This document shows positions 19,589 to 41,449 of a stretch of DNA of 64,000 bases, in pieces. Position numbers and translations under genes: made by a program. A model generated the notes under the pieces. It saw only the letters and a list, made by a program, of their open reading frames with translations. It made no database searches and was not told where the DNA came from. Every line of letters starts with the position of its first letter. The first letter of the stretch is position 1. Origin of the DNA: an uncultured Bacteroidota bacterium (GTDB lineage: Bacteria; Bacteroidota; Ignavibacteria; UBA10030; UBA6906). The stretch covers positions 224,001-288,000 of the forward strand of contig CAVOYH010000004.1 in the NCBI GenBank assembly GCA_963700635.1, in the 5' to 3' direction.

Positions 19589-19646
19589 CGCCCGTTGCGT
19601 GGCATGAATCCGGGTTGTATATTGGACGCATGACACGCGCAGGACA

Positions 19647-20333
19647 GTGCGGAAAAGATCTGGCCTCACGCCAGATCCCCCAGACACGGCTCCGGTGCCC
19701 CTGACCACGATCAGCCGGCGCGAATTGCTCTCGACGATGGCAATCGGCGGCGGAGCAATCGTGTCGGGCGTGGACCAGTTGTCCCACTCCCCGCGCCCCG
19801 CCGTGCCTCCGGGATCAAGGGATCATCCGGTCTTTCCGATCCGGCAACCGGACGTCCTGGCGCAGTCGTTCGGGTTCCATTCCTGGAAGACGCGGGAACC
19901 CGAGATCGCCGAGATCCTCGATGCGCACTCCTCGGTGATCGCCGTGACTTCCGGTCATCTCCACTTGACCGGCATGTCGCTCCATGGGCGAGTCCCGCAG
20001 ATTGTCTTTGCCGGGACGGCATCATACCCCCACGACGTGGGGCTGTTCACCGTCGCGGAGAGCACCGTCACCGTGGAGGCGGTACGGCTTCCTTCTCATC
20101 TCCTTGTGCCGGAAACAAACATCCACGGAATGCAGCGTCACGGGATAGACTTCACCGACCCGGATCACCCTTCGTACACGCACTCTGTGATGGGACACGT
20201 TGAAGAGCGTCGGTTCATCACACGCGTCCGTCGTTGTGACAGCGGTCAGATCGGAGTGTCGAGCCGAGACCGAATCTTATGGTCAGGGTTTCATGCCTCT
20301 CCGATTTCACCTTCACGGTGTCAGACGCAATAG
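19647..20333 (+). pseudogene. Tat-signal metallophosphoesterase remnant with internal deletion
   Basis: SRRELL Tat-like motif and C-terminal HPVF / TSGHLH motifs; the N-terminal DxH, GD and GNH motifs are missing. Confidence 0.55.
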
Positions 20334-20417: not shown

Positions 20418-22583
20418 ATGAAGCCCTGTGGACTACCAGCAACGGTGCTCGCCTGTGCCGCCGCTCTTCTCTGCGCCCTGCCCGCCCCGGGCAGCAGTCA
20501 GCCGGTACTCAAGGTCATGACCTACAACATCCAGGGAATGCGCCCTGGCAGCGACCCCGAAACACGCCTCTACCACATTATCGAGAATCTCAAGCGCATC
20601 GATCCAGACATTATCGGACTGCAGGAAATCAATGAGACCCTTGGCGGGAACGGCCTCGACAACCAGGCCAGAAGGATCTCTGAAGCGCTGAGCAGTCATT
20701 TCGGGATTCCCTACTTCTGGCATGCGGTGGCAACCCACGAAGCGTGGTGGGGCCAGTTCACGGAATCGATCGGCATCATGACCAAACACAACATTCAGGC
20801 AATGGATGAGAAGAGTCTTGTGAGCACGGACTTCCCTCGCAAAGTCTACTATAATCTCATTGATACTCCCCTTGGCGCGGTGCATTTCTTCACCACCCAT
20901 CTCTCTGCCAACGAACCGACCATTGGCGCCCGGCAGGGTGCCCAGGTGAAGGCATTTGTGACGGAGAAGGAGATCGGCTCGGGCGCCATCGCATCAATCG
21001 TCACCGGAGATTTTAACGGCATCCCAACGTCTGATGTGGTGCGGTTGTTCGTGGCGGGAACCGACGATTCCTGCTACATCGATACTTTCGCCGAGACCAA
21101 TCCCACTCTCCCAGGGTACACCGCCCCTGCCGGCGCCGCTGACGCACGCATCGACTACGTTCTTCTCAAGCGAACCGGGCGCCTGATGCCCGTGACGTCG
21201 ATCGTGGAATGCGATCTCCCGTATGCAACAGACGCCTACTGCTCCGACCATTACGCCGTCGTGAGCACGTTTTCTACACCTCGGCTCGGGTATCCCCGTT
21301 CCTTGATGCACAATCCCACTCTCGTCGGACGTTCCGACACTGTGGACCTTCAACTCACAAGCCTCTCGCTCGAGCCGGTGACTGTTCTCAGCGTGATCCC
21401 GCAGACGGGCGAGTTTGAGGTGCTGCCCGGCCCGGCATTGCCGGTAACGCTCACGACGCGCGGCGCATCCGTGACCCTCCGGATCGTCTTCTCGCCCACG
21501 CGCGAAGGGGAGATCACCGATACAATCACGGTCACCACCGATGACCCTCATTGGCCGACGGCAAGGATCCCCCTTGGCGGCATCGCCGTGGGCACACTCA
21601 CGCCTGCAGCTCTCGGGCCGTGTTACACGATCTCTAGAGGCCCCGGTGGAGATCTTCTCGGGAAACTTGATCTGGTCACCGCAGTGCCGTCGACGATCGG
21701 ATCCATGGGTTTTGCCGGAATGACAGGACTTGCCGTATGTCCGACGACGGGGGATCTTTATGCGGTGAGGCCAGACTCGCCCCAGAGCACGCTTGTCCTG
21801 GTCAATGCTCAGACCGGCGCTGCCGTGTCAGGAGGGAAGCTACCGATCGCCTCATTGCGCACCATCGCGTTCGGCCTGGGTGACACGCTCTATGGCGGGA
21901 CAACGACAGGTCGTCTCGTGCGTGTCGATCTCCGCCAACGGAGCGTCTCCGACATCATGAATTTTAATGGGATGGGCTTCGGAGGGATCTGCTATGACGC
22001 CCGGCAGGGAAAGATCCTCGCAAGTACATACGTGCCTCCCTTTACCAATGACAGTCTCTATGCCATCGATCCCCGCAACGGGGCCTCGACACTAGTCGGC
22101 TCGACCGGCTTGTGGATTGTGACTTCGTCGCTCACACTTGACACAACGGGAGCGCTCTACGGCTTAACCGGCACAGCTGCCAACCTTCTGGTACGTATCG
22201 ACAAGTCCTCAGGTCTCGGTGAACCTGTGAACACCGATGCGCTCGAGCACTATGCTGCTCTCGCGATCAGACCAAAGCCACGCGGAACCACATCTGTTGA
22301 CCCGGGGCCCACCGCCCCGATCCGGTCGGGGCTTCTCGGCAACTATCCCAACCCGTTTAATGGAGGCACGCGCATCATCTTCAGGACCATGCGCGAGGAC
22401 CGTGTGGTGCTCGAAGTGTTCAACATCCTGGGGGAACTCGTTGGGACGCTCGTTGATGATATCCGTGCAGCCGGAATCTATCAGATGGATTTCCGCGATC
22501 CGACGCTCGCCGGTGGTGTCTATGTATGTCGTCTGCGCACCGGCTCCCTCTCACAGGCAGGGAGAATGCTGTATCTCAAGTAG
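20418..22583 (+). CDS. Endonuclease/exonuclease/phosphatase (EEP) protein with Ig-like domain, beta-propeller and T9SS domain
   Basis: MTYNI, LQE, THL, TGDFN, RIDY and SDHYAV motifs; GNYPNPFN C-terminal domain. Confidence 0.9.
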   Translation: MKPCGLPATVLACAAALLCALPAPGSSQPVLKVMTYNIQGMRPGSDPETRLYHIIENLKRIDPDIIGLQEINETLGGNGLDNQARRISEALSSHFGIPYFWHAVATHEAWWGQFTESIGIMTKHNIQAMDEKSLVSTDFPRKVYYNLIDTPLGAVHFFTTHLSANEPTIGARQGAQVKAFVTEKEIGSGAIASIVTGDFNGIPTSDVVRLFVAGTDDSCYIDTFAETNPTLPGYTAPAGAADARIDYVLLKRTGRLMPVTSIVECDLPYATDAYCSDHYAVVSTFSTPRLGYPRSLMHNPTLVGRSDTVDLQLTSLSLEPVTVLSVIPQTGEFEVLPGPALPVTLTTRGASVTLRIVFSPTREGEITDTITVTTDDPHWPTARIPLGGIAVGTLTPAALGPCYTISRGPGGDLLGKLDLVTAVPSTIGSMGFAGMTGLAVCPTTGDLYAVRPDSPQSTLVLVNAQTGAAVSGGKLPIASLRTIAFGLGDTLYGGTTTGRLVRVDLRQRSVSDIMNFNGMGFGGICYDARQGKILASTYVPPFTNDSLYAIDPRNGASTLVGSTGLWIVTSSLTLDTTGALYGLTGTAANLLVRIDKSSGLGEPVNTDALEHYAALAIRPKPRGTTSVDPGPTAPIRSGLLGNYPNPFNGGTRIIFRTMREDRVVLEVFNILGELVGTLVDDIRAAGIYQMDFRDPTLAGGVYVCRLRTGSLSQAGRMLYLK

Positions 22584-22748: not shown

Positions 22749-24641
22749 TCACCAGGTCTGGGTCACCACCACGCGCAGCACAGATTCATGGAATGCATCG
22801 ACTACATCGGCATACTTGCTCCACTCACCGTACACTTCCACCGTCCCGCCGGTCCACACCGGCAGAAGCGAGCGGAGATAGAGCCCCGAACGCATGACCG
22901 CGTCCCGAGAGAGAGAAACACCTGCGGTCGTCTGCCAGTTACGCGGCGTGGAATACGTTGCGGAGAGATCCCAGGTGACGATGGACGAGAGCGATGAGCC
23001 GATCCCGGTGTTCAGAAGTCCCGCCGCCAGATTGAGCGACAACGGGATCACAAACCCGACACTCTGGAAGAACATCGCATTGCGCGAGATGTACCGGCCG
23101 CCCGGAAGCTGGGTCTTTCCTTCATGATAATTGATGGAGAACATCGTGGACGACATGAGCCCTCCAGCCGTCCGGAACGTGTACCCCGCAGTACCGCTGA
23201 CTGCGAGGATGTCACTTGTGATGTTCAGGCTGTCCGCCAGGATGCGGCTCACCTGCGACAACGGAGCATAACTGATCCGGAGGTACGGCAGGTTCCGGAA
23301 ATTCAAAGAGAGCTGAGCACCAAAGGCATCGACCGTGGTTCGGTATGCCTTCGTATCCGAAAGGTTGTCCTCGTCCCTCCTGTAGAACGCTCCCACCGAT
23401 AGTTGGCGTTGTACAAAAGATTGTTCTGCTTTCCCCTCAACGCGCATATTGTCCTTGCGCAGATACGGAACACCGAGAGACGCATAGCCCGCGCCAACGC
23501 GTTTGAAATTCGCCGAGATGGATGTACCACTCTCCGGGAACCTGTACCTGCCGTCGAAGCTGAGGGCCATGTCAGCAACACTGGTGAGGTTGGCATCCGT
23601 TACCGATCCGAGCCACGAGGGGATGTCGGATTCAGCAGGCCCTGCCGCCTGAATATCGGCTGTCAGGACCGAGTACGCCACCTCGCCTCCGATGTCGAGG
23701 CGATCATTGAACAGGAACAAACGGCCATCGATACCAATGACAGCGTTCTTTTGCGGCGCCACAGGACGGTGAAGGGAATCACGAGTAAGTGACCCGGCAT
23801 CATCCGCTCCGTACACTGCATTGATGAACAGATGCGTGTCGTCCCTTGCCCCGATGCCGACCCGCCCAGCTGCAAGGGTTCGCCGGTACGCGGCATTCTC
23901 GAACACAGAGGTCCACGACTGTGAAGCTCCCACGGCCGATTGAACCTGTCCTCCGGCAACAGCAAGATAGAACATGCCGGGTGTGAATTCGAGCTGTAGT
24001 CCCGTCAGAGTGGTTCCGTCCAGCGTCAGACGGGAATATGACGGGTACGTCACGCCGAGGACAATGGTCGGAAAGAGGGAAGCGAAACTCTGCGTTGCCG
24101 ATGCGAGACCCATCGCCTGCAACTCATCCATCCGCGCCTGCAGATCGGTTTCCTTCAGGTCCCGCAGTTCCTGGAGCTTCGTCAGCAGTGCTTCCGGATC
24201 CTCCCCTCCGGTCACCGAACTCCCGAGCGACCGAAGCGAGTCCTTCGCTGCCTCCGGCGTAAGTCCGGCAAGACGGTCCTGAAGCGATGAGAGATCCTGA
24301 ATACGCCCATCGATGCGTCGTCGGATCTGATCCTGGAGGTCGCTCCTGCTGAGTCCGACGCTGAAGGCGTTGATGTGCTGGAGACTGCTGCCCTCCTCCG
24401 TTGTCGCCAGTGCCTGGATCGAGAGCGGAAGACCGTACACATTCAGGACAGAGCTGAGGTCCCATCGAAGAAATGCCGGCGGCAGCTGCTGTCCGAAACC
24501 CTGACGGTTTGCGGTCTGCCAGGTCAGATGACTGACGCCGTTGAACTGCACGGGATCGGCGTTCTGCGCATACCCCGGTGCCGCCAGCCCGAGGAGGCAA
24601 CAGAGGGCGAAGAACGACGGGACACACAGTGACCGGCTCAT
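22749..24641 (-). CDS. Outer-membrane beta-barrel protein with a coiled-coil insertion (operon gene D)
   Basis: Signal peptide MSRSLCVP..GYA; helical insert DLQDQIRRRIDG..ELQAMG; many amphipathic strands; C-terminal Trp (VVVTQTW). Confidence 0.78.
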   Translation of the reverse strand: MSRSLCVPSFFALCCLLGLAAPGYAQNADPVQFNGVSHLTWQTANRQGFGQQLPPAFLRWDLSSVLNVYGLPLSIQALATTEEGSSLQHINAFSVGLSRSDLQDQIRRRIDGRIQDLSSLQDRLAGLTPEAAKDSLRSLGSSVTGGEDPEALLTKLQELRDLKETDLQARMDELQAMGLASATQSFASLFPTIVLGVTYPSYSRLTLDGTTLTGLQLEFTPGMFYLAVAGGQVQSAVGASQSWTSVFENAAYRRTLAAGRVGIGARDDTHLFINAVYGADDAGSLTRDSLHRPVAPQKNAVIGIDGRLFLFNDRLDIGGEVAYSVLTADIQAAGPAESDIPSWLGSVTDANLTSVADMALSFDGRYRFPESGTSISANFKRVGAGYASLGVPYLRKDNMRVEGKAEQSFVQRQLSVGAFYRRDEDNLSDTKAYRTTVDAFGAQLSLNFRNLPYLRISYAPLSQVSRILADSLNITSDILAVSGTAGYTFRTAGGLMSSTMFSINYHEGKTQLPGGRYISRNAMFFQSVGFVIPLSLNLAAGLLNTGIGSSLSSIVTWDLSATYSTPRNWQTTAGVSLSRDAVMRSGLYLRSLLPVWTGGTVEVYGEWSKYADVVDAFHESVLRVVVTQTW

Positions 24642-24651
24642 GCGATCCTCG

Positions 24652-27600
24652 TTAGAGTTCGATAGCATCGGCGTACACCAGGCGGGGCACAGTCTCGCCT
24701 GCAGCATCATGGTGCACTTCGAATTCGCGGACAATGATGCGGTATTGTTTGCTCCCTTGCGCCACCGGTTCACTCAGTGTGATCTCTTTCACCCAGCGCA
24801 TCTTCGTCTCATGTAATTCCGTGGGAACCATACGGTCTGCCGCATCAGGTTCATCGGCCGACCCGGGGATCATGGTACCGGAAACCGGAATCCATGTCAG
24901 GTCCCCCTCCCCGACCTTCTTCTCAAGTGTGGCAGTGAGGTACATACTCCTATTCAGCGCGGCAAGGGGCTTGACCTCACCCGGATACCGGCTGGCATAG
25001 ACACCGGCGACCTGCACGGTGATCTTCTTGTCCGTGTTGAAGGTCACCGCAGCAACCCGGTCGGGCACCACCTGGATAAAATCCGTCAGCACGGCGTGCG
25101 ATAGATGTGCATTCACGATGGAATTCGGCTGGAAGCGGACGAGCGCGAGACGGACGAATGGGAAGTATGCCTGACCCGGATCGAGGACCACGTCCGCGAA
25201 CCAGAGGTTGCGCTCCTTGTCGAACACCGGTTTGTATCCGGCAACATGCAGCGGGACCCCTGCTCCGATATTCGCCGTACCAACGGCCAGCGGAAGCTCC
25301 TCCAGTGTCACATCCACCTGCTTTCGTTCCGTGTTCTTAAAATCCGCCAGTGTTGGCGCAGCCTTAATTGCCCCACCCGACTTGACGATGGGATCGAGGC
25401 CCCACTGTGTCACAAACGGCCGCAGCCGGTTATCGTCCGGATCGTTCTCATCAAGGGGTTTGCCGCCCGGACGGATGACAATACCCAGGAGCTCGCCGTC
25501 GCCCGAGGAGAACCATGGCCGCTCCAGGAACACTCGAATACCGCCCCCGCATCGCCTGCTGATGATTGTCCGGGCATCCTCTTTCCGTTCCCACTGGAAG
25601 GTCGGCACACAATACTTCACCTTCGGTGCATGCGGACGTGCCGAATTCAGAACTGCTGCTTCGACGGACTGCTCACGGGTGAACGGGACCGGGGGTTTCA
25701 CCTTCTTCATGTCGCCCGCTGTCGGAAGCAGATCCAGAAAACATTCGCGGAACCGCGAGACCGCCACAACTGTGTATCTCACCTTCCTGTATTTTGTATC
25801 GCCAAAATCATGTCGTTGCTCTGCATGCGTGCTGGTAACGAGGCTCACCGGGCCCTGAAGTTCAGGAGCGGGTGTCGCGGTTACCGACGGCTGCGCACCA
25901 GGGAGGGTCAGCGCCATGTTCACCTGACCGCCGGCTTCCTTTCCCGGCGACTGGACCGCAACCTTCTGGTCACCGATCAACACCGACTTGTCAGTCTCCT
26001 TCACCGGCAGGGAGAAGGCCTGCCCCTTTCCATCCACCGTGGTCCACTCGGGCATGGTGATATCGTCGAACGGTTCGCTCCATTCGGCGCGGAGGTCGAA
26101 CCGGTCCGTGCTCCGGCCGTGCACCCCGATCTTTCCGTGGATCATCGCGAACGTCGCACCATAGGTTTTGACCGGGATCAGTTTCTCAACGGATGGTTCA
26201 AGGAGTGGTTGCTGGACAGCATGCACGATGATCATCTCGCGGTATGGCGTGATCATCCAGTGCTGCCCCTTTTTCGCCTCCTCTTTCACCTTGGCCGAAG
26301 CGGCGGTGGATTTGTCCGCAACCCAGCTGGCGATGCCGAGCACGTTTGCTCCGGCATCATCCACATACGAACTGTACCGCACGGTCACCACACCGGCTTT
26401 CGGGACCTTCACGATCACCAGTGTATCCCCGCCCTTTTCTACTGTCACAGCATCTGTGTGCTCCTCGATACGGATCCGGAAGGAGCGCACATCCGGCCAT
26501 CCCGTGCCGCCAGGAAGCAGATCAAGGTACTCAACCGTACCGACCGGGAGACCGTTCCAGGAGAACGACAATGCGACGCCACGTGCGAGCGGATCGGGAA
26601 GATATGGCACCGTTACACTGTCCCCTGGATAGATCTTTGCAGGAAATCCTTCGTGTGAGACGATCAACGCGTAGGCGTCGGCGGCGGAAAGTCCGTCGAA
26701 CCTGCCGTGGTACTCTGCCATCTGCTGACTGCATCGGGGGGCGAGGAGATGGCGCTCCGGCGTCGGGTCGTCCAGATCGTGGGCCTTGAGATACGCAGCA
26801 ACCGTCGCATCATAGTTGCTCCGGAGAATGACACGCTCCACGGACTCACCGGGTTTGACAGGTGTGCGCAACACCACGGCCGGTGAGGCCACTGGTTCGA
26901 GCCGGAGATATGTCGTCTCGCGCGTTGCAATGGACACATCATTCACGGAAAGCTCTGCCAGATCTCTCCCGTTCCCGGCGAGGTCAGCGATGCGCGCGCG
27001 CAAACGGTACTTCCGTCCGAACCGAAGCCGCGGCAGGGTCCCGGTCTCTGCTTCCGTGGTTGCGGACAATTTTGTGAACGTCACAGCCGGATTATCATTG
27101 TTCTCCACTTCGTCGAGGTCCGAGACCCGCTTGCCGGGTCGCGGCGCCACAAGACTCCACCCATCCCACCGGCAGATGTTCTCGCTCAGCCGCATTTCAT
27201 CGGGACTCCCGGCATCCGTTTCACCTTCCGCAGGCGGGGGGGAGGTGAGTGCGATGCTCACATACCCCTCCGTTGTTTCAGCATGAGACAGACCGGGCTT
27301 CCCGCCGAAAGACACGGCAGTCTTTCGCTTGCAGAGCGAATGCCATTTCCCTGTTGCGTCGGACCAGGCGTCCACTCTGTATCCCCGCACCAGATCCTCA
27401 GCGTACAGGCGCACCGCTGCCTTGTCCGCTTCCAATGTTGGCGGCGACGGGTTCTTCAGGACAGCAGGGTGAACCTGGGCATATGAAAGGTTGACGTTGT
27501 AGGCCGCCTGGGCGTCAATGCGGGTCAGTACTTCCGCGCTGTGATCCCGGCGGACGAGGGCGATCCCCTGGGTACGAAGCGACGGCAGTGAGATGAAGGG

Positions 27601-28893
27601 AAGCATCGGAACAGCGGTTGCCTTGATCAGGCCGTTGATCTTTTCAATCCCGGCGGCCGACGCGAGCATCACGGGCTCCGGCAGCGTCTCATCCCACGAT
27701 CCCTGTTCGATCGTTCCCATGAGCGCCTTGAGCTTCATCGCAGCACCGTCCACATCAAGCTGGACGACATCGAATTTTGTTGGATCGCTCAGATCGAAAA
27801 CACCGTCCTTGATCGCACTCACCCCCGCACGGGGTGCCGCACGAAAGTCACCCGTGGTGAGGGTGTATTTCGTTTTCGCTGAGAAATTCAGGCTGGCACT
27901 GTCCGTGAACACACTCTTCCAGTTCGCCTTTACCGCTACGAATGAGGATGCGGGGATGCCTGCCATGGCCGGAATGGTGATATCGATGACAAGGCCGAGT
28001 TTGCGCATCAGGTCGGGATAATCTCCGAGGGAAGAAACCGCCTCATGGAACTCGACTTCGGGCAGCTTGGGAAACACCTTTCCGGGTTGCACCGGTTTCA
28101 CGGGGTCCATCGGTGTGTGGAACAGGCTGAACGCCATGAAATTCTTCATTACGTTCTGACCATTCGTCAGGATACGCCGTGAAGCGGCCAGATCCTTCAA
28201 AATGCTCTGGAGGCCGGCAGCGGCACCTGATTTTAATCGCATCCCCGGTCCCTTTACCAGCTGCTCCATGCTCCGCTGCATGCGGGCCCGGACAGGTGCA
28301 CTCATCATGTTCAGGGATGGTTGGACCGTCTGGAGGGATCTGAGATCGAGGCCCGGGGACACTGCGCCGGGGGTCTTGACGGTCGCCGTGCTGCTCATGA
28401 ACTCATAGAGAGAGACATCTTCAAATGCCTTGAGCACCTCCTGCACCGGAGGATAGCTGCCAGGCCAGCCGGCAGCGATCGTCGCGTACTTCTCCTTGAT
28501 GAATTCTTCGATCTCTTTCACCGGATAGGAGAGGATCGGCACCTTTCCGAGCGATTCGATCGCATAGGGTTTCACGGGAGAAGAAGGTGTGAACATTGCC
28601 TGCCAGTATGCGGGGTCAAGCGAGACATTCCAGAGCTTGGGATCGTCAAACGGTACGGTAGGACCATTCTCGAATTCCACGGACAAACGCAGGACATCGC
28701 GCACATGTTCCGTCCAGGCCAGGAGTTTGCTAAAATCATTCAGGGTCTTCATGACGACGGGCCCGGTCGGGTCGGCGTCCGGCGAGATCTCATCCGTACT
28801 CAAACGGAATGAGATGAACACTGAGAGTTTAAGCGCACCTCCGGTCGCCTTGCCGTTCGGGAGAGCCGTCCAGAGTAATGTTTGCGTGTTCAT
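24652..28893 (-). CDS. Giant hypothetical protein, 1413 aa, no signal peptide (operon gene C)
   Basis: Long ORF rich in Pro and beta structure, with motifs WTALPNG, LPRLRFGRKYRLRAR, RPWFSSGDGELLG and YFPFVRLALVRFQP. No function is recognisable. Confidence 0.85.
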   Translation of the reverse strand: MNTQTLLWTALPNGKATGGALKLSVFISFRLSTDEISPDADPTGPVVMKTLNDFSKLLAWTEHVRDVLRLSVEFENGPTVPFDDPKLWNVSLDPAYWQAMFTPSSPVKPYAIESLGKVPILSYPVKEIEEFIKEKYATIAAGWPGSYPPVQEVLKAFEDVSLYEFMSSTATVKTPGAVSPGLDLRSLQTVQPSLNMMSAPVRARMQRSMEQLVKGPGMRLKSGAAAGLQSILKDLAASRRILTNGQNVMKNFMAFSLFHTPMDPVKPVQPGKVFPKLPEVEFHEAVSSLGDYPDLMRKLGLVIDITIPAMAGIPASSFVAVKANWKSVFTDSASLNFSAKTKYTLTTGDFRAAPRAGVSAIKDGVFDLSDPTKFDVVQLDVDGAAMKLKALMGTIEQGSWDETLPEPVMLASAAGIEKINGLIKATAVPMLPFISLPSLRTQGIALVRRDHSAEVLTRIDAQAAYNVNLSYAQVHPAVLKNPSPPTLEADKAAVRLYAEDLVRGYRVDAWSDATGKWHSLCKRKTAVSFGGKPGLSHAETTEGYVSIALTSPPPAEGETDAGSPDEMRLSENICRWDGWSLVAPRPGKRVSDLDEVENNDNPAVTFTKLSATTEAETGTLPRLRFGRKYRLRARIADLAGNGRDLAELSVNDVSIATRETTYLRLEPVASPAVVLRTPVKPGESVERVILRSNYDATVAAYLKAHDLDDPTPERHLLAPRCSQQMAEYHGRFDGLSAADAYALIVSHEGFPAKIYPGDSVTVPYLPDPLARGVALSFSWNGLPVGTVEYLDLLPGGTGWPDVRSFRIRIEEHTDAVTVEKGGDTLVIVKVPKAGVVTVRYSSYVDDAGANVLGIASWVADKSTAASAKVKEEAKKGQHWMITPYREMIIVHAVQQPLLEPSVEKLIPVKTYGATFAMIHGKIGVHGRSTDRFDLRAEWSEPFDDITMPEWTTVDGKGQAFSLPVKETDKSVLIGDQKVAVQSPGKEAGGQVNMALTLPGAQPSVTATPAPELQGPVSLVTSTHAEQRHDFGDTKYRKVRYTVVAVSRFRECFLDLLPTAGDMKKVKPPVPFTREQSVEAAVLNSARPHAPKVKYCVPTFQWERKEDARTIISRRCGGGIRVFLERPWFSSGDGELLGIVIRPGGKPLDENDPDDNRLRPFVTQWGLDPIVKSGGAIKAAPTLADFKNTERKQVDVTLEELPLAVGTANIGAGVPLHVAGYKPVFDKERNLWFADVVLDPGQAYFPFVRLALVRFQPNSIVNAHLSHAVLTDFIQVVPDRVAAVTFNTDKKITVQVAGVYASRYPGEVKPLAALNRSMYLTATLEKKVGEGDLTWIPVSGTMIPGSADEPDAADRMVPTELHETKMRWVKEITLSEPVAQGSKQYRIIVREFEVHHDAAGETVPRLVYADAIEL

Positions 28894-28910
28894 ATCAGGT
28901 CCCCGAATGA

Positions 28911-31900
28911 TTATTCCACCGCGAATGCGGCACGGTACCGCCCGTACTCATCCGCATTCGTCGTGTCCTTGAACAGTGGGTCGCCGGCCGATCCCTTGAA
29001 TTGTCGCGACGTAGACATCGACACTGATTTGCTGAAGAAGGCGATCTCGATCTTCACCTTTACCGTCGCCTTCCCCTCCATCTTTCCGTTCGACGTATAA
29101 CTCAGACCCAGATAGAACTCCACGGAGAGCGTGATCAATCCGAGGATCGCCAGCGCCCCGCCCAGGCGGACGTACGCCTCATAGTTCGTCGTGTCGGAGG
29201 ACTTCATGTAATAGAAGCCGCCCATCACCACCACCCCACCCTTTGCCACACCGAGGTTGATTGCAATGGCTCCGCCAAACTCCAGGGATGCCTCGAGCAC
29301 TTCCACTCCCCGCGGGGAGATGGAGATGCCGAAGAAACCACCCCCGCCAAACAGTGAGACGGTGAGAAGGAATGGGTTCTCCCGGGAACAGAAATCAAAT
29401 CCGACATTCAACGGATTCCCGTTGAAGGGGATTCCCAGTCTGGCACCAAGAGAGATATTCTGCAGACTGAAGGCGCCGACAGCGATCGTGGGAACGGAAA
29501 GTGAATACCCGGCGGTCACCCCCGACGTATTCACCTCGAGGAACGGAGGATCACTGAATCCTTTGGTGTCAACCACTGTCAGGATCTGGTTTACGAAGGA
29601 GAGTGCGCCAATAAAGCGGAGGTCTTTGATGTCGACGTCCACATCGACCTTGTTTCCGGGTTTGATAGTAAAGACCGCGCGGTTGAATTCGATCGCCATA
29701 AACTCCTGGATCTTCGGCAACAGGCGGAGCTCAAAATTCTTGAGTTCGCTCCGGACCGTCGCCACCGGGGCCGAACCGTTCATCGGCATTCGCAGCTCCA
29801 CGGTCACGGAAAGCCCGCCGGCGGGATCCTTCGGGACGAATACCCCGTCAAAGACCGCATCCGAAGAACCTGACGGCGCGACGTTCTTCTTCAGGCGGGG
29901 AGTCCAGGTCAGCGTCGTCCGCATGTATTCCGGACACGTTTCCGTCACCATGCGTGGCATGCGCCCCGCTTCGGCGGCGATATCCGGGATCGTGGCGATC
30001 AACGTGTACAGCGGAATCCCGCCGAGGATCTTGGCGTCAGAGAGCGCAGACTTGAAGTAGTCCACGGGGTCGAAGATGCCTGTCGCGAGCGATGCCACAC
30101 TTCCGCCAAAGGCGCCGACCTTTCGCGACATTCCGGTGATGCCCAGCGAAGGAGTCACGAGACCGCCTGACTTCTTCGAGTCTGCAGCGAAGTTGATCGG
30201 CAGTTCTTTCTTAAGCGAGACGAACACTTCGCCCTTGTTCTTGTTCCCGTCGAAGCCGTTCTGGATGTACGCCGGATCAAGCACGATGGTCTGTGCTGCA
30301 GCGGCGCCCAGAAGCTGTTCGGCCGGCGAGATATGCACGGAGGCTTCTTCTACCGTTGGATAGAAGGGTGGATCGTTGGTGGACTGGAGTGCGGACATCC
30401 CGTTGATGTTCACTTCACCGCCGAACTGAAGCATCTCCGTTTCGAACGATGTGTCGCCGGGCGTGACCGGGTCTGCGAAGGCAACACGCTGGCCGCCGAG
30501 TGAGCTCTTGCGCCTCTCCTTCCACTTCATGTAGTCGGAGAGTGCAGCAGCGGCCGTTGAGCCGTCGAATGTGACACCCCGATCCAGAAACAGGATCGGC
30601 GCCGTGAACTCCGAGGGTCTCCCTTCCCAGTCCTCACCGATGCAGTGGAAACCGAACGGTGTGCCGCCCACGACAGGCCAGAATGCCGATTGCCCCTTAT
30701 TCGCGACATCAGAGTCTTCAGGCTTGTCGAGATTCGGCGTGATGAGCGTCGTGATGCGGATCCGGCGATACGGCATCCGGCGTGCTTCCGATCCGGCGGG
30801 CATCGCGTTCTGGCCCGCGCCGGGATAAATTTTGTCACGTTCCTTGAGGATGATATACATGCGCTGGCGGAGGTACGCCACCGGAACAGGCTTTCCACCG
30901 AGGCCGAGTTTCTTGAGATGAAACTTGCGTTCGGTGATCTTGATAAGGGACGCCTTGTGACCGAACGGGAACAGGAACCCGGCGTACACGACACGGACAA
31001 AATGGTCGCGCCCCAGTGTTGCACGGTGGCGCCAGTGCTCAACCGACAGGCCGGGTGGGACGGGCCATTCCCAGTCGCCGACGACATTCATCCATCCGCC
31101 GAGCCCCGAGAGCATCAGGAGCTCTGCATTCATCGGCACGGGATCATAGCCGCTGTTGTGGAACCCGGCCGTAAGGTGCACGATTTCATGCCGGTCCTGC
31201 CGGTCGAGAGATGTGCGGTAGGGAACCATCGGCAGATGACCCGGACCCTGATCGGACTTCTCCTTGTAGTGCGGGGACCAGAGCGCCCGCAACGTTCTGA
31301 GCTGCGGTGGACCATCAGAGGAATTTCCCTGTGCATCACGGATCCCCAGACGCGTGTGCCACAATTCCACACGCCCATCGGACAGGGATGGTTCTGTTTG
31401 ATGCATCCAGGCTGCACGATCGTTGGGGGACATAAATAGCGCCGACGGCAATTCCAGAGCGGTATCGGTTTCACCAGGAGGGTTCGGCTTGAGCATCTGT
31501 CCCAGAAGTCCCGGAGGAATCGCTGGCGCAACGGGTGCAAGAACACCGGTCAGTTCAACATTCGCAAGGAGTTTCTGAAGTGAGGCGGCATGGAGGGTCG
31601 CGAGTTCGGGATCGGTATCAGCTTCGTGGGCAGCGGCATTCCGGAGGGTCTCGATGCGTTTGAACACCCATCGATCAGATTGGCCCGCGCGCACAGAGAC
31701 TTCCAGCACCTTGATATTGTCATCCAGTGCCTTGAATGCACCTTGCGTGGCGTTTTTCCGCGCCGGGGCCGCTCCGGGTGTGATGTCGCGCAACGCATCG
31801 AGCGCAACACCTGCGGCCTGACGCGCCCCGGATACGCCGCTCCGGAGTGCGGCTCTATTCTGAAGCATTGTAACATACGATTGCTGTTTCTTTGACAACA

Positions 31901-33589
31901 CAGAAGCAGGGCCCGTGACATTCAGCGGCAGGGTCCGGCACGCTTCGAGGAGCCCTTTCAGCGTGTATTCGATCGGCGCAGCATTGTTGGGCACCTTGAA
32001 GACCAGCCGGCTCGGCCCCGCGATCTGCGACGGCACCGGCGGGTCGGGCGGATTCTCGTCAGAAGACTTTCCCTTATCCGGATCGGGAGGCTTACCCGGT
32101 GGATTCGTGACAGGGAAGTTCTTGTTGTCCGTTTCGAAATACGCTTTCTCGATGATATGCTGCGGGGGAAAATGTGCGATCAGGAACGCGGGCTTCGAGG
32201 AGTCGTCTTTCACCAGCACCTTCACCCCGCTGCCGCTTGTTTTCATGTTGCGGAATTCAAAATCGATCCGTACAAAATCATCCGGACGGATGACCGATAC
32301 AACCGAGTTCAACGAGAGCGCATTGATGGGCGCGATCTGACCGATCTGCATCCCTGTATTCGTTTTCTTGACCTCCTGACCGGCGTCCAGCGAAATCGTC
32401 TGGGCTGACCGGAGAGGAGACGCATCCGTAATCGCATCGGGCAGGGGCAGCAGGGTCCTGCGGATCGACGGCGTGCACCGGAGCGCGAGATCGTCTGCCG
32501 TGTGCCAGACACACTCGAAGGGGGTCCGGGCCACATCCCCGGCAACCTCGACTCCGACCTCGCCATTGGACAGCCATACCGGCTGCTGCGCCAGCGTGGC
32601 GAAGACGGAGTGCTCAATGGTCCTATTGTCGATACCCACAGCGTACTGTGGGAACGAGAGTGGCAACGTTCCGGTAAATCCCGGCGCCGGATGCGATAAA
32701 GAAGCCCACAGCAGCGAATGATCTGCAGCCTGACCGGCAACGATCGCCTGGCGAATCCCACCCCGGGCCGGAGCCGCACATTCGATCTGAATGACGTCGA
32801 AGGACGCCGGGCCGGTAAGGAAGGTCACTGCCGAGCGACCATACACCGAGGGCTGCACCGACCAGGGACCGTCACCCCGGCGCAGCGTGAGGATCGTGCG
32901 CGAGCGTGTGGGTGCCTTCAAGAAGCTGCCGTCTGCATTGCCAGCAAGACGGATCCCGGCCAATGGCGACATGGTGCGCATGCCGGGTGCAACAAGTTCT
33001 GCGAGCGCGCGGCCATCACAGTCGAAGGACCAGCGTGGAGTGAACAGGGCAGAGAAGGATCCGTTGAGTTGGAGGGCGCTGGACTGACACGCGAACGCGC
33101 GGACATTGTCAAAGGCGCCTGTAAGGCGGAGAGGTTCAAGATCTGCTAGCCAGCGTTCGAAGCCCGCTTCACCGTCGCTTGAACCAAGAGCGAACTGCAT
33201 ACGGAGGGTGGAACCGAAAAGCGCAGGGGTGATAGTGGCATGTACGTCGGCCGGCAACTCCGTGCCGGGGAAGAGCGCTCCGGTAAGCAGGACGTGTACG
33301 ACGCCATCCTTCCGCTCGTACTCCAGGCGCGGGGCACCTGCAAACATCCGGACGTCAATGACCCAACGGTTCTTCGAACCCAGCCGGAAAGTGACACGAC
33401 CACGCTCGGCGCGTACTTCGTATCGATCAAGAAGAAGTGCGCTGGCATTCTTCAACCCGGGTGTAGTCACCACCGCAGCAGAACCCGCCATGCCAAGCCA
33501 GGCCCGACGCGGAGAGACTCGGTAGCGGACTTCAGCCCTGATGCGGAGCGAAGGGCCGGGATGTTTAGGCAGGAAGTGTTCACGCGCAT
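28911..33589 (-). CDS. Giant hypothetical protein, about 1560 aa, with probable Tat signal and beta-rich C-terminus (operon gene B; 1-nt frameshift near 33512)
   Basis: Long ORF. The RBS-preceded ATG at 33589 is one base out of frame; restoring the base gives ESLSRRAWLGMAGSAAVV. The C-terminus is Gly/aromatic beta-strand rich and DUF6603-like. Confidence 0.78.
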
Positions 33590-33606
33590 CTCCCTCTACT
33601 GGTTGG

Positions 33607-34530
33607 TCAGGGTGTTTCGGAACAGGACCGGAGCAATTCCTGCAGCACATCGATCTGCAAGCCAACGGGCTTCTCGGCGAGCTTCACGATCAAAGGAACG
33701 GTCGGCTTCGGGGGCTGATAGGTGAACTCCCAAACTTCGCTTCGCCCTACCAATTGATCGAATGTGTACACAACGACCATCCACGCGTATCGGTGACCGA
33801 TCTGCAGGGCGCGTGCGTGGGGCGGATATTGGAGGACGGAGGTCCGGAGATTCTCTGCTTCGAACCATGCGAGATTCCGTTGCATCGCTGCCTGTGCGGG
33901 CTGACGACCGAGGATCTCCACGATCCGCAGGCGGTACTCCATCCGGACATCCGGACGCCCCGCACCACCCCAGATCCATGTGAAGACGGGCAAAGGCTCT
34001 TCCAGGAGTGATTCATTCACCGGGGTAAGTAGGATCGGAGCAACCGTATTCTCCACACGCTGGTCAGCACAGTCCGTTCCAAGGGAACCGCCCGCTGCTG
34101 CAGAGACAGCGCTTACGTCCACACAGATCGTGTAGTCGCCCGAAGGGAATTCTCCCGTACCGGTGACGGCATCACGGTACCGGCTGATGCGATACTGAGT
34201 CTGGACCGGCGAAAGCTGGTTTGCTGTTGCCGCCGTGAAGCTCTTCATTCCCGGTGGGAGCGAAAAGGCCGACGAGGTTGCCGTAAGGACTAGTCCATCG
34301 TTGCCGTTCACACGTACTGTCGAAATGATGCGGACAGTGAAGGTGGTGCGTGTGGGGTTGAGAAGATCAACTTCCCAGAGGTCGGAATAGCGCAGCTGAT
34401 TGGGGGGAGGCTGGCGCAACCGGACCGTCACGGTCTGCTGCGCCTGCAGGGTTCCGGTTGTGGCGGCGAAGATGACAATCTGAATGAGGTAGACCAGGTG
34501 CTGCCATCGACGCGACAGAGGTCGGGTCAT
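33607..34530 (-). CDS. Secreted TANFOR-like Ig/FN3 protein (operon gene A)
   Basis: Signal peptide; PPPNQL..SDLW, PSGDYTICV..C, PILLTP, PVFTW, YRLRIVEI and LQIGHRYAWMV match the pattern of Bacteroidota TANFOR-type N-termini. Confidence 0.65.
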   Translation of the reverse strand: MTRPLSRRWQHLVYLIQIVIFAATTGTLQAQQTVTVRLRQPPPNQLRYSDLWEVDLLNPTRTTFTVRIISTVRVNGNDGLVLTATSSAFSLPPGMKSFTAATANQLSPVQTQYRISRYRDAVTGTGEFPSGDYTICVDVSAVSAAAGGSLGTDCADQRVENTVAPILLTPVNESLLEEPLPVFTWIWGGAGRPDVRMEYRLRIVEILGRQPAQAAMQRNLAWFEAENLRTSVLQYPPHARALQIGHRYAWMVVVYTFDQLVGRSEVWEFTYQPPKPTVPLIVKLAEKPVGLQIDVLQELLRSCSETP

Positions 34531-34944
34531 AGTGGATCCTCCGCGTAAAGTAGTACTACTTAAGGAACACTTTCACCAATGTCAAGTCCTCCCCATCACC
34601 CCCCTTATCGGGGTTAACTCAAGGTTTTCCGGAGACGATCGTCCGCGCCCTTTCCCTGACAGCGTGATACATCGGGATTTTATTAGCGTACACCATCACC
34701 TGGTGTTGCGGCTCTCGTTCCTCCATGGTACATTGAGCTAAGCTACCACCGCGCCCATGCCAGCCGGAATACGACGATGCCATCGAACGACCGACGCGCC
34801 GTTCAGAAAGGGACCTATGCATCCGGGTTTCCCGAACCGACCTCCATCGGAAACAATCGGGAGGCAGTGGAGGTGAAGCTGAGAATGCGAAACCGGCTAT
34901 GCTGGCGCTCCATGGGAATGCACATAGTGAGGATGACAGTGCGT

Positions 34945-36750
34945 ATGGCGAATTCGTTCATGCACAGGTGTCTGCTGGCACTCCTTCTTCCCAGCGCCGC
35001 CGCTTTTCTGCTTCCGCAGGCTCCTGCACAAACCGTGCAGTCTCCCTATCTCCTCAACCCCGGCCTGGCGATCGGATACGTTGACAGCTGCGCTCGCTTC
35101 TGGTTCACCGCATATGACTCTGTTCAGGGTGGATTCTTTATGAACATCGATCGTACGGGAAAGCTGATCAGTTCCTGGGGAACAGGGAAGAACACGCTGA
35201 ACCAATCGAGGGATGCGTACGGGTTCCTGCGAGCCTACATGCTCACCGGCAAACAGGAGTACCTTCTGTATGCGCGGCGTGCCCTGGACTTCCTTTATTC
35301 GTCGGGATGGGACAAATCCTCGGGCGGGTGGTATAACGAGATCGACCGATATGGGATACCCTCGAACCCCTCGGCGGAGAAGACTGCATATTATCAGCAC
35401 TATGCCATGCTCGGCATCGCAGCGTCTGTCGAGGTGACGGATGACAGTCTTGACCGGGCTGTTCTTGAACGGAGCCTGGTGCACACGGACGCCCATTTCT
35501 GGGATGCGCGGCCCGGTGTATTCGGGTACTTTGACCGGACCCGTGCCGACGGGACACAACCCTTGGGTAAGAGCTTCAATGCGACCGTCGATGCGGTGAC
35601 AACACACCTCCTCTCGCTCTATCTCATGACGGAGGACACGGTCTATCGGAGACGCCTGATGGACGTAGCGGACAACATGGTGAACCGGCTTGCGGCCTCG
35701 GCGGGCTCACAGGCCATCGGCTTTGTAGAGGGGTATGATACCGAATGGAACCCGGACCCCGCGAACACCATGACGATTATGGGCCATGTGCTGAAGACGG
35801 CCTGGTGTCTGGGGCGGTTGTATTCCCTGTTTCATGACCAGACGTATCTCGCTGCCGCTGAACAGCTCGTCCAATCCGTTCTCCAGAAAGGATATGATCA
35901 TCAAAATGGCGGGCCGTACAAAGACTATAACCGCATCACGGGGGCGATGCTCATGTGGGGCCAGCAGGACACTGCAAAGGCCTGGTGGCAGATGGAACAG
36001 GCGGTCACCGCCGGATTGATGCTCTACAGTCTTACCGGAAATCCGGCGTATCTGCAGATGGCAGACGAAACCCTTACCTTCTTCATGACCCATTTTGTCG
36101 ACCATGTATATGGCGAAGTGTATGAAAACAGGACGAAAGTGGGAGGCCAGATCTGGGATACGAACAAAGGGAGCAGCGGTAAGGCCGCTTACCATTCCGT
36201 GGAACTCGGCTACTACGTGTATCTGTACGGAAACCTTCTCCTGAAACGTTCTCCCGCAACCCTGTACTATGCGTTCCCCCCGGTGCAATATCCGCGGACC
36301 ATCACCCTGGCACCGATTGCTGCCGATCTCCGGATTGCCTCTGTTCTCCTCAACGGGCTGCCGTTCGGCGGTGTTGATCACTCAAACTGCACACTCTCGA
36401 TTCCACCTTTTATCGGCGGCGAGTTCGTCGTAACGTTCGAGCGTCCGCTCACAAGTGCGCAGGAATCGCAACTCGCTCAGCTTCCCGGGATGATCCACCT
36501 CGATCAGAATTACCCCAATCCTTTTAACCAGTCGACCGTCATCGGCTATCAGATATCGAAACCGGGCCATGTGCGTATCGCAGTGTACGATCTGCTCGGC
36601 AGGAAGGTGGCTGTGCTCGTGGACGAGCCAAAGACGGTGGGGAGGTATTCCGTTCATTACGACGGCGCCGCTCTGGCCTCGGGGGTGTACCTGTGTCGGT
36701 TGGAGGCGGCGGGAGCAGGGCTGAGCAGGCGGATGATTCTGACAAAGTGA
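34945..36750 (+). CDS. AGE-family (N-acylglucosamine/cellobiose 2-epimerase-like) protein with signal peptide and T9SS domain
   Basis: (alpha/alpha)6 motifs NQSR, WDKSSGGWY, GHVLKTAW, WWQMEQA and KAAYHS; QNYPNPFN. The start is uncertain (34945 or 34960). Confidence 0.85.
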   Translation: MANSFMHRCLLALLLPSAAAFLLPQAPAQTVQSPYLLNPGLAIGYVDSCARFWFTAYDSVQGGFFMNIDRTGKLISSWGTGKNTLNQSRDAYGFLRAYMLTGKQEYLLYARRALDFLYSSGWDKSSGGWYNEIDRYGIPSNPSAEKTAYYQHYAMLGIAASVEVTDDSLDRAVLERSLVHTDAHFWDARPGVFGYFDRTRADGTQPLGKSFNATVDAVTTHLLSLYLMTEDTVYRRRLMDVADNMVNRLAASAGSQAIGFVEGYDTEWNPDPANTMTIMGHVLKTAWCLGRLYSLFHDQTYLAAAEQLVQSVLQKGYDHQNGGPYKDYNRITGAMLMWGQQDTAKAWWQMEQAVTAGLMLYSLTGNPAYLQMADETLTFFMTHFVDHVYGEVYENRTKVGGQIWDTNKGSSGKAAYHSVELGYYVYLYGNLLLKRSPATLYYAFPPVQYPRTITLAPIAADLRIASVLLNGLPFGGVDHSNCTLSIPPFIGGEFVVTFERPLTSAQESQLAQLPGMIHLDQNYPNPFNQSTVIGYQISKPGHVRIAVYDLLGRKVAVLVDEPKTVGRYSVHYDGAALASGVYLCRLEAAGAGLSRRMILTK

Positions 36751-36903
36751 GCCTCACGTCACACTGCGGGGCAATCGGGGAAGTCAGGTTTCGTACAACA
36801 CCGGAGCAGTGTTCTGTGTCCGATTGCATGAATGCTCCGGCCTATTCATGATAAGCCGGGCCATGGTTTGACAGTCCGAGGTAATCACAAGGGGTGAACC
36901 CGT

Positions 36904-37332
36904 ATGCCCAGAGTCCGACTTAATCTTCCGGAGCGCTATCTTTTTACAACAGAGATAACACTTCGAGTGTCCGACATCAATTACGGCGGACATCTCGGCA
37001 ATGACGCGGTGCTTGCGCTCGCGCAAGAAGCACGGATGCGTTTCCTGAGCTCCCGTGGCTGGTCGGAACAGAATGTAGCCGGCGTCGGGATCATCATGGT
37101 CGACGCAATTGTGGTGTACCGGTCAGAAGCGTTCTACGGTGATGTGTTGACGATAGATGTCGCCGTGGAAGATCTGCAGCAGTCGGGATGTGATTTTCTT
37201 TTTCGTATGGTGAACAAGGTTTCGGGGAAAGAGGTCGCTCGCGTGAAGACGGGCATTGCTTTTTTTGACTACACAAGCCGCCGTCTGTCCCCGATGCCCG
37301 AGGCATTCCGGGCCCGATGCAGCCAGGAGTGA
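36904..37332 (+). CDS. Acyl-CoA thioesterase (4HBT/hotdog fold)
   Basis: LRVSDINYGGHLGN motif. Confidence 0.9.
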   Translation: MPRVRLNLPERYLFTTEITLRVSDINYGGHLGNDAVLALAQEARMRFLSSRGWSEQNVAGVGIIMVDAIVVYRSEAFYGDVLTIDVAVEDLQQSGCDFLFRMVNKVSGKEVARVKTGIAFFDYTSRRLSPMPEAFRARCSQE

Positions 37333-37363
37333 AATTCCTTCTTTAAAAAAGTGTGATGAAGCC

Positions 37364-37392
37364 TTGACAGCAATTCCCATCAATGGTATATT
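37364..37392 (+). promoter_or_regulatory. Strong sigma70-type promoter
   Basis: TTGACA-17nt-TATATT with an extended TG. Confidence 0.7.
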
Positions 37393-37928
37393 AAATCACT
37401 AACAACAGTACAAAGAAGGTTTTCGTGTCCCGATGGATCCCCAGACTCTGGAGATCCCGAGGGTTCTGAGGGTACCCCTGCACACTGCTCTTTTCAGAAC
37501 GATATGGAGAACATCCTGACAGCGCGCAAAGGATCTTTTGGTACAATCCTGCTCCTTTGCCTCCTCATCACCGTATCGGCATCTTCCCAGACGAACAGCC
37601 ACAACCTGTGGAAAAACCCGCAGTTTCCAGCGATTAAGAGCAAGGCCATCCCGGGTCAGCTCATTCATTTTCCCTCCCGCTGCTCGAAGGCAATTCTTCC
37701 CGCTCCATTATACCTCTTTCAGCCAACCCAGCACTATCTTGTGGCATATTTCCTCTACGGACTCGGACCCTACAAGGATGGTTTTATCCCCCGGGTTCCC
37801 CCCCCTTGTAGGAATCTATGAACGGATGGAGAAGGGGGATCTGTCCGATTTGTTTTTCTGCTTTTTCGAACAAAGGATATAGAGACATTCAGAATGCTCA
37901 ATTATTCATCAACTCCAGGGAGATATTC

Positions 37929-41078: not shown

Positions 41079-41103
41079 ATCCTTAAGGCCGTTGGCGACA
41101 GAT

Positions 41104-41134
41104 GGCCCGGTGCGTTTGCATCGGGCCTTTTTTT
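41104..41134 (+). terminator. Intrinsic terminator
   Basis: GGCCCGGTGC-GTTT-GCATCGGGCC followed by a T-run. Confidence 0.85.
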
Positions 41135-41207
41135 AGTCCGATGCGGTAACCCTATGCTGTTCAGTCCAGACATGGGTGACGCTCTTCGACCGCCATTTCA
41201 TTTATAC

Positions 41208-41236
41208 TTGTAATCGGATAAGCTGCTTCGTATATT
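41208..41236 (+). promoter_or_regulatory. Sigma70-type promoter
   Basis: TTGTAA-17nt-TATATT, with the same TTCGTATATT context as the tRNA promoter. Confidence 0.55.
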
Positions 41237-41449
41237 TTATTCACGAACCGGCCTTGCGCTCCCACTTCATGTTGTTACTCTCATCTTCGTCCCTCGAAGA
41301 TTATCAATTCTGCTGGTATCGTAACTGTCCTTTGTCCTGCGGCAATCTCTTGCCTACACTCGGAAGTACTTTCGCAATGATCCCGATCTGACCGGTGGGA
41401 TGGCCTGAGATTGTCGTCCGCCTTCCATCTATAACCTGCGGAGGTTTCA

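Follow-up and report, generated by a model that had tools for sequence, protein, structure and literature searches.

The question raised by this locus is whether four tightly spaced genes, encoding proteins without a significant match in the family libraries searched, constitute a single surface or secretion system. The genes, here termed A, B, C and D, lie within a stretch of 64,000 nucleotides (the window) of contig CAVOYH010000004.1, from an uncultured Bacteroidota bacterium of the class Ignavibacteria. The first-pass annotation of the window had interpreted them as a dedicated export and assembly apparatus (A and D) for a large two-subunit surface complex (B and C). As judged from comparative sequence analysis, the operon joins two modules, B-C and A-D, which also exist independently of each other. 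For the way in which they act together, we tentatively favor a model in which a B-C complex exported by the twin-arginine translocation (Tat) system is coupled to, i.e., mounted on or handed to, a TANFOR-class plug-and-barrel module formed by A and D in the outer membrane.

The unit comprises four minus-strand genes separated by gaps of 17, 17 and 10 nt in the list of open reading frames (ORFs), and the coordinates of the first-pass annotation agree with these ORF calls. In window positions, the genes are:

34530..33607, minus strand: gene A, 307 aa, with a Sec-type signal at residues 1-30 (by eye) and a two-part β-sandwich
33589..28911, minus strand: gene B from the start typical of its family, about 1559 aa only if a frameshift is read across
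33665..28911, minus strand: uninterrupted long frame of gene B in the ORF list
28893..24652, minus strand: gene C, 1413 aa, without a signal, an array of FN3/Ig/macroglobulin-like sandwiches
24641..22749, minus strand: gene D, 630 aa from an ATG, with a Sec-type signal at residues 1-26 (by eye) and a C-terminal Trp

The longest frame of D begins at 24773 and would encode 674 aa, and the ATG at 24641 gives the 630 aa listed. As the unit is bounded by a convergent gene on one side (20418-22583, plus strand) and a divergent gene on the other (34777-36750, plus strand), it consists of exactly four genes. The genome of the window (G000) was compared with that of a second member of the same genus (G001), whose matching stretch (L115) is 90.5% identical over 12.6 kb. 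The ratios of nonsynonymous to synonymous substitution rates (dN/dS) between the two were 0.16 for A, 0.14 for B, 0.13 for C and 0.10 for D, indicating that all four genes have been under purifying selection for most of their divergence.

None of the four proteins had a significant match in Pfam, NCBIfam, PADLOC or PHROGs, with PADLOC giving no match at E ≤ 0.1, and searches of the PDB by sequence and by profile were likewise without a match. The library scans identified no known toxin domain in any of them. The ESM Atlas returned solely 'hypothetical' clusters, apart from DUF6603 at 0.77 for B, which is a lead only and on which nothing was found in the literature searched (most subscription journals lay outside the search). 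In agreement with the first-pass annotation, the C-terminal domain of the type IX secretion system (T9SS) was absent from A, B, C and D in the Pfam scan, and it was present in 8 of the 18 other window proteins scanned.

The B-C pair

An initial search with C yielded 56 homologs, all unnamed, from Chloroflexota, Bacillus cereus, Streptomyces, Acidobacteriota and Asticcacaulis, and a relative of C was encoded in at least 587 of 599 candidate stretches of species-representative genomes. A sample of 80 loci (L001-L080) was kept for analysis of the neighborhood. In 72 of these, tblastn placed B immediately ahead of C on the same strand; among the remaining eight, seven have less than 300 nt upstream of C, leaving L075 as the one true exception. 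The gap between both genes had a median of 16 nt and did not exceed 30 nt in 39 of 54 loci. Clustering of 978 ORFs produced only two widely shared clusters, C (76 loci) and B (67 loci), with the next largest occurring in 6 loci, and a Pfam scan of the neighbors identified no recurring partner of B-C in other phyla. Monoderms are among the carriers of the family (Bacillus, Streptomyces, Symbiobacteriaceae). As 71 of the 72 loci with B beside C showed neither A nor D, B-C does not need these proteins, and by all of these comparisons it is an autonomous, tightly coupled pair. The resemblance of the two giant proteins to a gene pair of other phyla, which the first-pass annotation had pointed out, is thus borne out.

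Single B-C loci adjoin a TIR-domain protein (L033, 13880-14845), a BTAD/AAA STAND-like regulator (L054, 2134-5589) or an AAA and VWA pair (L077, 7784-9939), without any recurring pattern. A barrel of about 810 aa (CarboxypepD_reg and OMP_b-brl_3) is encoded near B-C in L045, L051, L061, L062 and L063 (Marinifilum, Prolixibacteraceae-type), and in the three Marinifilum-type loci (L061-L063) it is situated immediately upstream of B. A relationship of D to these OMP_b-brl_3 barrels was ruled out (hhalign probability 0.08).

In the window, the stop codon of A ends at 33607, and the ATG that fits the N-terminus of the B family, at 33589, leaves the gap of 17 nt. This ATG is out of frame with the long ORF of B. 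In G001, one extra base in a short TC run at about 33511/33512 results in a continuous frame, and the G001 protein (P0061, 1557 aa) is 94% identical within the region searched (B residues 700-1584). The 1-nt indel (window 33505-33520) may reflect an error of assembly, a recent mutation or a switch prone to slippage; because of it, the family-type start of B is cut off from the export signal in this assembly. The size of about 1560 aa given by the first-pass annotation thus holds for the family-type start (about 1559 aa), but only when read across an indel which that annotation had missed.

The following features were assigned to B:

33515..33438, minus strand: Tat-type signal with an S-P-R-R-A-W-L-G motif, an uncharged hydrophobic stretch and an A-S-A site, in the long frame and downstream of the indel
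28914..32300, minus strand: conserved core, ORF residues 456-1584, common to the long and short forms of the family
28971..29570, minus strand: predicted C-terminal porin-like β-barrel, ORF residues about 1366-1565, glycine-rich

The Tat-type motif, not mentioned in the first-pass annotation, is also present in the intact B of G001. A regular-expression search, which made a few false calls in both directions, identified a twin arginine (RR) followed by an uncharged hydrophobic stretch in 41 of 53 full-length B homologs. Many of these have textbook-like Tat motifs, and the layout of motif, hydrophobic stretch and A-x-A site is conserved across phyla. TatC (PF00902) is encoded in G000 (244 bits). 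An 'LNxxALR'-like motif is conserved at the N-terminus of many B homologs (L001-L080), 15-40 residues ahead of the twin arginine, and is kept even in some homologs which lack it (L010, L011).

Relatives of B form at least 1374 protein clusters at E ≤ 0.001, all unnamed save for an isolated COG label and a single automatic name, 'Outer membrane channel'. Long forms of 1400-1790 aa and short forms of 1000-1190 aa have the C-terminal approximately 1100 residues in common. In the AlphaFold2 model of ORF residues 456-1584 (m1fc296db977d; predicted local distance difference test score, pLDDT, 77; predicted template-modeling score, pTM, 0.64), the last approximately 200 residues form a barrel of 12-14 strands. 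By VIA-align, this barrel matched CymA with a Z-score of 14.6 (root-mean-square deviation 2.9 Å over 182 residues), OmpG with 13.4-13.7 and autotransporter translocators with 11.7-12.7 (AIDA-I, 12.7). One face of its strands is hydrophobic and the other rich in Gly, Ser and Thr with a few charges, and in the family alignment the nearly invariant residues of B are densest in this stretch.

For the remainder of B, Foldseek, run with the model as a whole, returned low-probability fold matches only. The list for the entire model was headed by LptD (E 6e-5, probability 0.92) and also contained the microsomal triglyceride transfer protein, OrfX1-OrfX3 and TamAB. TcdB2-TccC3, Rhs cores and teneurins appeared with probabilities of 0.04-0.10 and TM-scores of 0.03-0.06, and no RHS match was found in Pfam. 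A comparison with viral models gave weak rows of tail-fiber and host-specificity proteins (TM-score ≤ 0.36 on short pieces).

C has a conserved N-terminus from the first residues on and, in accordance with the first-pass annotation, its translation of 1413 aa does not show a signal (by eye). The model of residues 214-1413 (pLDDT 79.9, pTM 0.61) is a chain of FN3/Ig/macroglobulin-like sandwiches, whose fold matches were generic (best VIA-align Z-score 9.2) and included no enzyme fold. An assignment as an alpha-2-macroglobulin was considered and dropped because no thioester-type motif was seen in C by eye. A few C homologs bear LamG, Big_3_5 or lectin-propeller domains, consistent with an extracytoplasmic location. 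Each genome of the genus bears a 5' lesion in a different giant gene, B in G000 and C in G001.

Both B (at least 1374 clusters) and C (at least 587 genome stretches) therewith represent very large families that span many phyla and for which no name, domain, structure or paper was found. A giant protein with a Tat-type signal that ends in a conserved porin-like barrel and is paired with a signal-less partner, also in monoderms, does not correspond to any described type of system.

The A-D pair and its relation to the TANFOR class

Homologs of D were identified in 75 of 401 genomes of the phylum and, at E ≤ 1e-20, in 66 of 301 genomes of the class. D is a predicted outer-membrane barrel, and its translation shows the insert and the C-terminal Trp described by the first-pass annotation. 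The insert maps to:

24084..24350, minus strand: helical (coiled-coil-like), heptad-rich insert of D, residues 98-186

All of the eight B-C-linked D proteins cover the whole D profile, and 10 of 11 unlinked D-like proteins lack the profile positions from about 115/135 to 200/210, which correspond to the helical insert. By this profile comparison, the insert is specific to the subfamily of D that is linked to B-C.

An A-like ORF was located directly beside the D-like barrel in all of eight distant loci fetched with 1.5-kb flanks, and three loci (L090, L094, L095) encode A::D fusions as one ORF of about 940-950 aa. The first-pass annotation had proposed modeling A together with D, and binding was predicted: the complex of mature D and mature A reached an interface score (ipSAE) of 0.87 (0.89, 0.87 and 0.87 in the individual runs) vs. 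0.00 for the best of three controls. In calibration, the mark used for ipSAE was reached by 58 of 80 solved complexes and by 2 of 110 mismatched pairs, counts which hold only roughly as the alignments were self-supplied. The model comprises 379-425 contacts, at least 75% of which agree between runs, with a partner pLDDT of 76-78. The interface residues of D occupy alternate positions on many of its strands, and its segment 48-54 pairs with A 220-224. Residues of D between 93 and 198 are absent from the interface, so that the insert is placed outside. Accordingly modeled, A is predicted to sit inside the lumen of barrel D as a plug.

Such an arrangement resembles the plug-in-barrel complexes LptD-LptE and MtrA-MtrB and the plugs of TonB-dependent transporters and ushers. 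Common to these and to A-D is that a separate protein or an N-terminal domain is located, here by prediction, in the lumen of a large barrel, and the A::D fusions mimic the plug-then-barrel order. Sequence and profile comparisons, however, show no similarity of A or D to those families.

A yielded 31 homologs, all annotated as 'hypothetical'. A profile of the A family matched 6061 representative proteins at E ≤ 0.001 and 1256 at E ≤ 1e-30. In the 150 proteins listed (262-3400 aa), most matches begin within the N-terminal 50 residues or so and a few lie further in. Recognizable passenger domains were present in 20 of the 38 long A-headed proteins scanned and not in the other 18. They include RCC1 propellers (7), GEVED (4), RTX (2), FN3/Ig-like domains (3) and single cases of PKD, subtilase, M19 peptidase and DUF928; LamG, SdrD_B, DUF11 and Fib_succ_major are additional domains on some of the same proteins. 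A known toxin domain was detected in none of the 38.

Polymorphic toxins with TANFOR (TIGR02542) as their N-terminal domain have been described as a class in Bacteroidetes (PMC7073777; Jana, Salomon and Bosis 2020). According to that paper, about 87% of the TANFOR toxins have a Sec signal, and in some cases the toxin or cargo is the product of the following gene. Their route of export is described there as unknown, with the authors speculating on T9SS, and the part covered here names no barrel partner for TANFOR.

The designation of A as 'TANFOR-like' by the first-pass annotation stands as far as remote homology is concerned but not with regard to family membership. A had no match to TIGR02542 in NCBIfam at E ≤ 0.1, and a search of the genome gave nothing at the locus even at E ≤ 10. 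The model weakly matched 3 of 28 members of the A subfamily (best E 0.0072), more than did any other family. Relative to the curated cut-off of 67 bits, TIGR02542 identified seven ORFs in 4 of the 401 phylum genomes (27-36 bits) and one further ORF (60 bits) in 1 of 301 genomes of another family, all below the cut-off. The A-family profile, in turn, matched all eight of these ORFs (E 2e-23 to 6e-9), with TIGR02542 spanning the first half of the A-like domain. These profile matches indicate that A is a remote TANFOR-class domain and not a member of the TIGR02542 family. Two of the eight TIGR02542-found loci have a D-like barrel directly upstream (L131, E 9e-30; L135, E 3e-27). Together with the A-like ORFs that adjoin D-like barrels, this bears out the link between TANFOR-like proteins and such barrels that the first-pass annotation had stated.

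A shares with the TANFOR toxins an N-terminal domain behind a Sec signal (that of A assigned by eye), variable lengths and C-terminal parts within the family, cargo that is sometimes encoded by the next gene and an origin from T9SS-bearing organisms. It differs from them in that A is below the TIGR02542 threshold and has no passenger, that its relatives lack a known toxin domain (38 sampled) and that a cognate barrel is predicted for it here.

Linkage of the two pairs and possible mechanisms

Among the 301 genomes of the class, C is present in 34 and concentrated in four families (19/21, 5/6, 6/16 and 3/35 genomes); within the order of the window organism its distribution is patchy, with 2 of 41 genomes. 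D (E ≤ 1e-20) was detected in all 34 C-positive genomes vs. 32 of the 267 C-negative ones, and in 26 of the 34 it shares a contig with C, at a distance of no more than about 12 kb (hand count of coordinates). As the genomes of the class are related, these counts overstate the independence of the co-occurrence. The genes are found in four arrangements:

A-B-C-D: the window, G001, L117, L118, L121, L122 and L126
A-D-B-C-A': L119, L120 and L123
B-C-A'-D: L124
divergent arrangement, with D and a long A that bears an RCC1 propeller on one strand and B and C on the opposite one: L104, L105, L107, L108 and L110-L112

In addition, a 665-aa ORF of L125 (7368-9365, plus strand) fuses an A-like domain to a region that resembles C residues 1090-1396 (E 3e-18). 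A D-like barrel comes next, no B is nearby, and the fusion is a single case. Conservation of all four genes across genomes, which the first-pass annotation had named as a check, thus holds within the class. Its proposal of A-D as the dedicated export apparatus of B-C does not hold in general: neither A nor D accompanies B-C in 71 of 72 loci, B bears a Tat-type signal of its own, and A-D pairs are widespread with quite different cargo.

According to the model we favor, B would be synthesized with a twin-arginine signal and fold in the cytoplasm, where it would bind the signal-less C, whose gene would be translationally coupled to that of B. The pair would be exported by Tat, into the periplasm in this organism and to the outside in monoderms. 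The C-terminal porin-like barrel of B may be the membrane-inserting element and the FN3/Ig array of C the exposed or binding part. D would be an outer-membrane barrel that depends on Sec and the β-barrel assembly machinery (BAM), and A would enter it from the periplasm, plug the lumen and pair a strand with the N-terminal segment of D. Because the same domain heads long passenger proteins in other genomes, the barrel-plus-plug pair A-D may be a general means by which proteins are mounted or exported at the outer membrane. Within the class, where A is without a passenger, B-C encoded alongside would be the non-covalent cargo, probably docked via the helical insert of D or the conserved tail of A to form a large outer-membrane-mounted complex. 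Gene order, conservation, co-occurrence and motifs are seen directly in the sequences, and the folds and the A-D complex are predicted by the models; we infer the export by Tat, the riding of C with B, the insertion of the B barrel into a membrane, the contact between B-C and A-D, and the biological role.

Parts of this route are familiar from other systems. Signal-less proteins are exported by Tat together with a signal-bearing partner, e.g., in the hydrogenase HybO/HybC, and export by Tat can be followed by an outer-membrane step, e.g., for PlcH of Pseudomonas. Like the Tat hitchhikers, B has a twin-arginine signal and the strictly co-encoded C has none; unlike them, the pair does not include a cofactor-binding enzyme, its combined size is far larger, and the binding of B to C is presumed. 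The barrel of B is similar in size and shape to CymA, OmpG and the translocators of the autotransporters AIDA-I, BrkA and EspP (Z-scores 11.7-14.6), and, as in autotransporters, a very large part precedes it. In contrast to the classical autotransporters (type Va), B has a Tat-type signal, a strongly conserved barrel, no Pfam match and an occurrence in monoderms. Two-partner secretion (type Vb) follows a similar logic by analogy only, as A and D have no match to any Pfam or NCBIfam family (Omp85, POTRA, TPS). Literature searches on Tat signals combined with C-terminal barrels, on Tat hitchhikers with outer-membrane proteins, on giant Tat proteins and on the barrel lumen in Bacteroidota returned nothing relevant as judged from the listings, and no description of B, C, D or a barrel partner of TANFOR was found within the literature searched.

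Several observations weigh against the Tat-exported, outer-membrane-coupled complex. At about 330 kDa, B-C would exceed any Tat cargo known to us, and we know of no precedent for a membrane barrel on a Tat substrate, or for one in monoderms. Twelve of the 53 B homologs, mostly short forms, lacked the twin-arginine motif in the regular-expression search, and hidden Markov models of Tat-type signals matched 24 of the 53 N-termini at E ≤ 0.1, one of them above the cut-off (curated model TIGR01409). In the genome of the window itself, the start of B is out of frame with the Tat motif, and C of G001 is interrupted by a stop at codon 35, closely followed by a 1-nt indel (matching window 28760-28800), the annotated protein there starting at residue 48. 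Unless these lesions are assembly errors, the system may be switched off or decaying in the genus. In addition, the 71 of 72 loci with neither A nor D, which are mostly from other lineages, monoderms included, show B-C without the proposed partner module, and 8 of the 34 C-positive genomes of the class hold D elsewhere or on another contig; for three of these eight, C and D are on different contigs of fragmented assemblies (160-740 contigs).

The principal alternative is that B-C is a delivered effector, namely a Tat-exported two-component pore-forming toxin whose barrel inserts into the membranes of other cells and which is released or presented via the TANFOR-class route of A-D. This would be in line with A as a remote member of a toxin class in which, according to PMC7073777, the toxin is sometimes encoded by the next gene, as well as with the patchy distribution near the window organism (2/41 genomes of the order), the highly conserved, glycine-rich barrel of B that is unlike ordinary porins, and the lack of a conserved third gene, which would fit a toxin harmless to its producer. 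However, library scans found no toxin domain in B or C, and the 38 A-headed proteins have RCC1, GEVED, RTX, lectin-like or protease domains in place of known toxin domains. In two families, B-C is present in 19 of 21 and in 5 of 6 genomes, which suggests a standing component rather than a sporadic weapon; the C-termini of B and C are not polymorphic, and a folded complex of this size would presumably not pass a barrel of the size of D. We regard a pore-forming toxin as unlikely. An improbable role for B is that of a bridge-like or lipid-handling envelope protein which moves lipid between membranes, with C, A and D as scaffolds. It is suggested by LptD at the head of the Foldseek list and by the microsomal triglyceride transfer protein, OrfX1-OrfX3 and TamAB further down, but the TM-scores were 0.03-0.29 and the matches were driven by the barrel, the family occurs in monoderms, which have no second membrane, and no AsmA, TamB or Lpt family match was obtained with Pfam or NCBIfam.

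That A-D and B-C are unrelated neighbors on one island, the four-gene operon being no functional unit, appears very improbable. Each pair is indeed widespread without the other, and insertion sequence (IS) remnants and a raised G+C content suggest acquired DNA; on the other hand, D accompanies C in 34 of 34 genomes and lies within about 12 kb in 26 of them in four gene orders (counts inflated by kinship), the D proteins linked to B-C form a subfamily with an insert of its own, and the gaps in the window are merely 10-17 nt. Least probable in our view is an action of B-C inside the cell, e.g., as a defense or stress module, with the RR motif not being a working export signal. The 12 of 53 B homologs without this motif, the consistent lack of a signal in C and the TIR-protein and STAND-like ATPase neighbors in single loci would agree with such a role. 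It is opposed by the lack of any PADLOC match and of NTPase or nuclease domains, by the conservation of the motif, hydrophobic stretch and A-x-A layout across phyla, by the extracellular-type add-on domains on some C homologs and by the linkage of B-C to two predicted Sec-exported envelope proteins in the class.

The Tat-exported B-C complex coupled to A-D can be widened into a joint claim on both modules. Here, the TANFOR-like domain would be a plug that threads into a cognate, as yet unnamed barrel and would provide the missing T9SS-independent export or display route, widespread in the phylum, for TANFOR-class proteins including the published toxins. B-C would be a pan-bacterial Tat-exported machine of about 330 kDa, in which one partner has no signal and travels with the other, with a conserved single-chain membrane barrel that works even without an outer membrane, and would be coupled to that route in the class. 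In its entirety, this claim is doubtful. The predicted lumen-bound TANFOR-like domain with its cognate barrel nevertheless represents a testable alternative to the T9SS guess in PMC7073777. If true, A-D would add an outer-membrane display or export route in Bacteroidota-type bacteria and offer a starting point for the study of several thousand A-headed proteins (6061 representatives at E ≤ 0.001).

Surroundings of the operon

Similarity to G001 stops about 60 nt upstream of the start codon of A, and the flank there differs between the genomes (window 34593-35500 vs. L115). The number of promoter-like sites did not exceed that of shuffled sequence (4 vs. a mean of 3.8), as determined with a sigma-70 model that is ill-suited to the phylum. 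Terminator-like sites numbered 17 vs. a shuffled mean of 9.3 (standard deviation 2.9), none of them within the three intergenic gaps.

Remnants of insertion sequences with an rve-type integrase core and a transposase helix-turn-helix domain are located a few kb off the operon (14238-15083, plus strand, and 19244-19708, minus strand). The G+C content is 0.57-0.61 across 18-36 kb vs. 0.51-0.57 in most of the remaining window. Together, these two features hint that the locus may be acquired DNA.

Genes encoding T9SS cargo are dense in the window (4370-7444, 20418-22583 and 34777-53565) and include an M4 peptidase, two EEP-family proteins, two arylsulfotransferase-like proteins, an epimerase-like protein and an Ig/CBM protein. 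In addition, a WD40 protein of 750 aa is encoded at 10841-13093.

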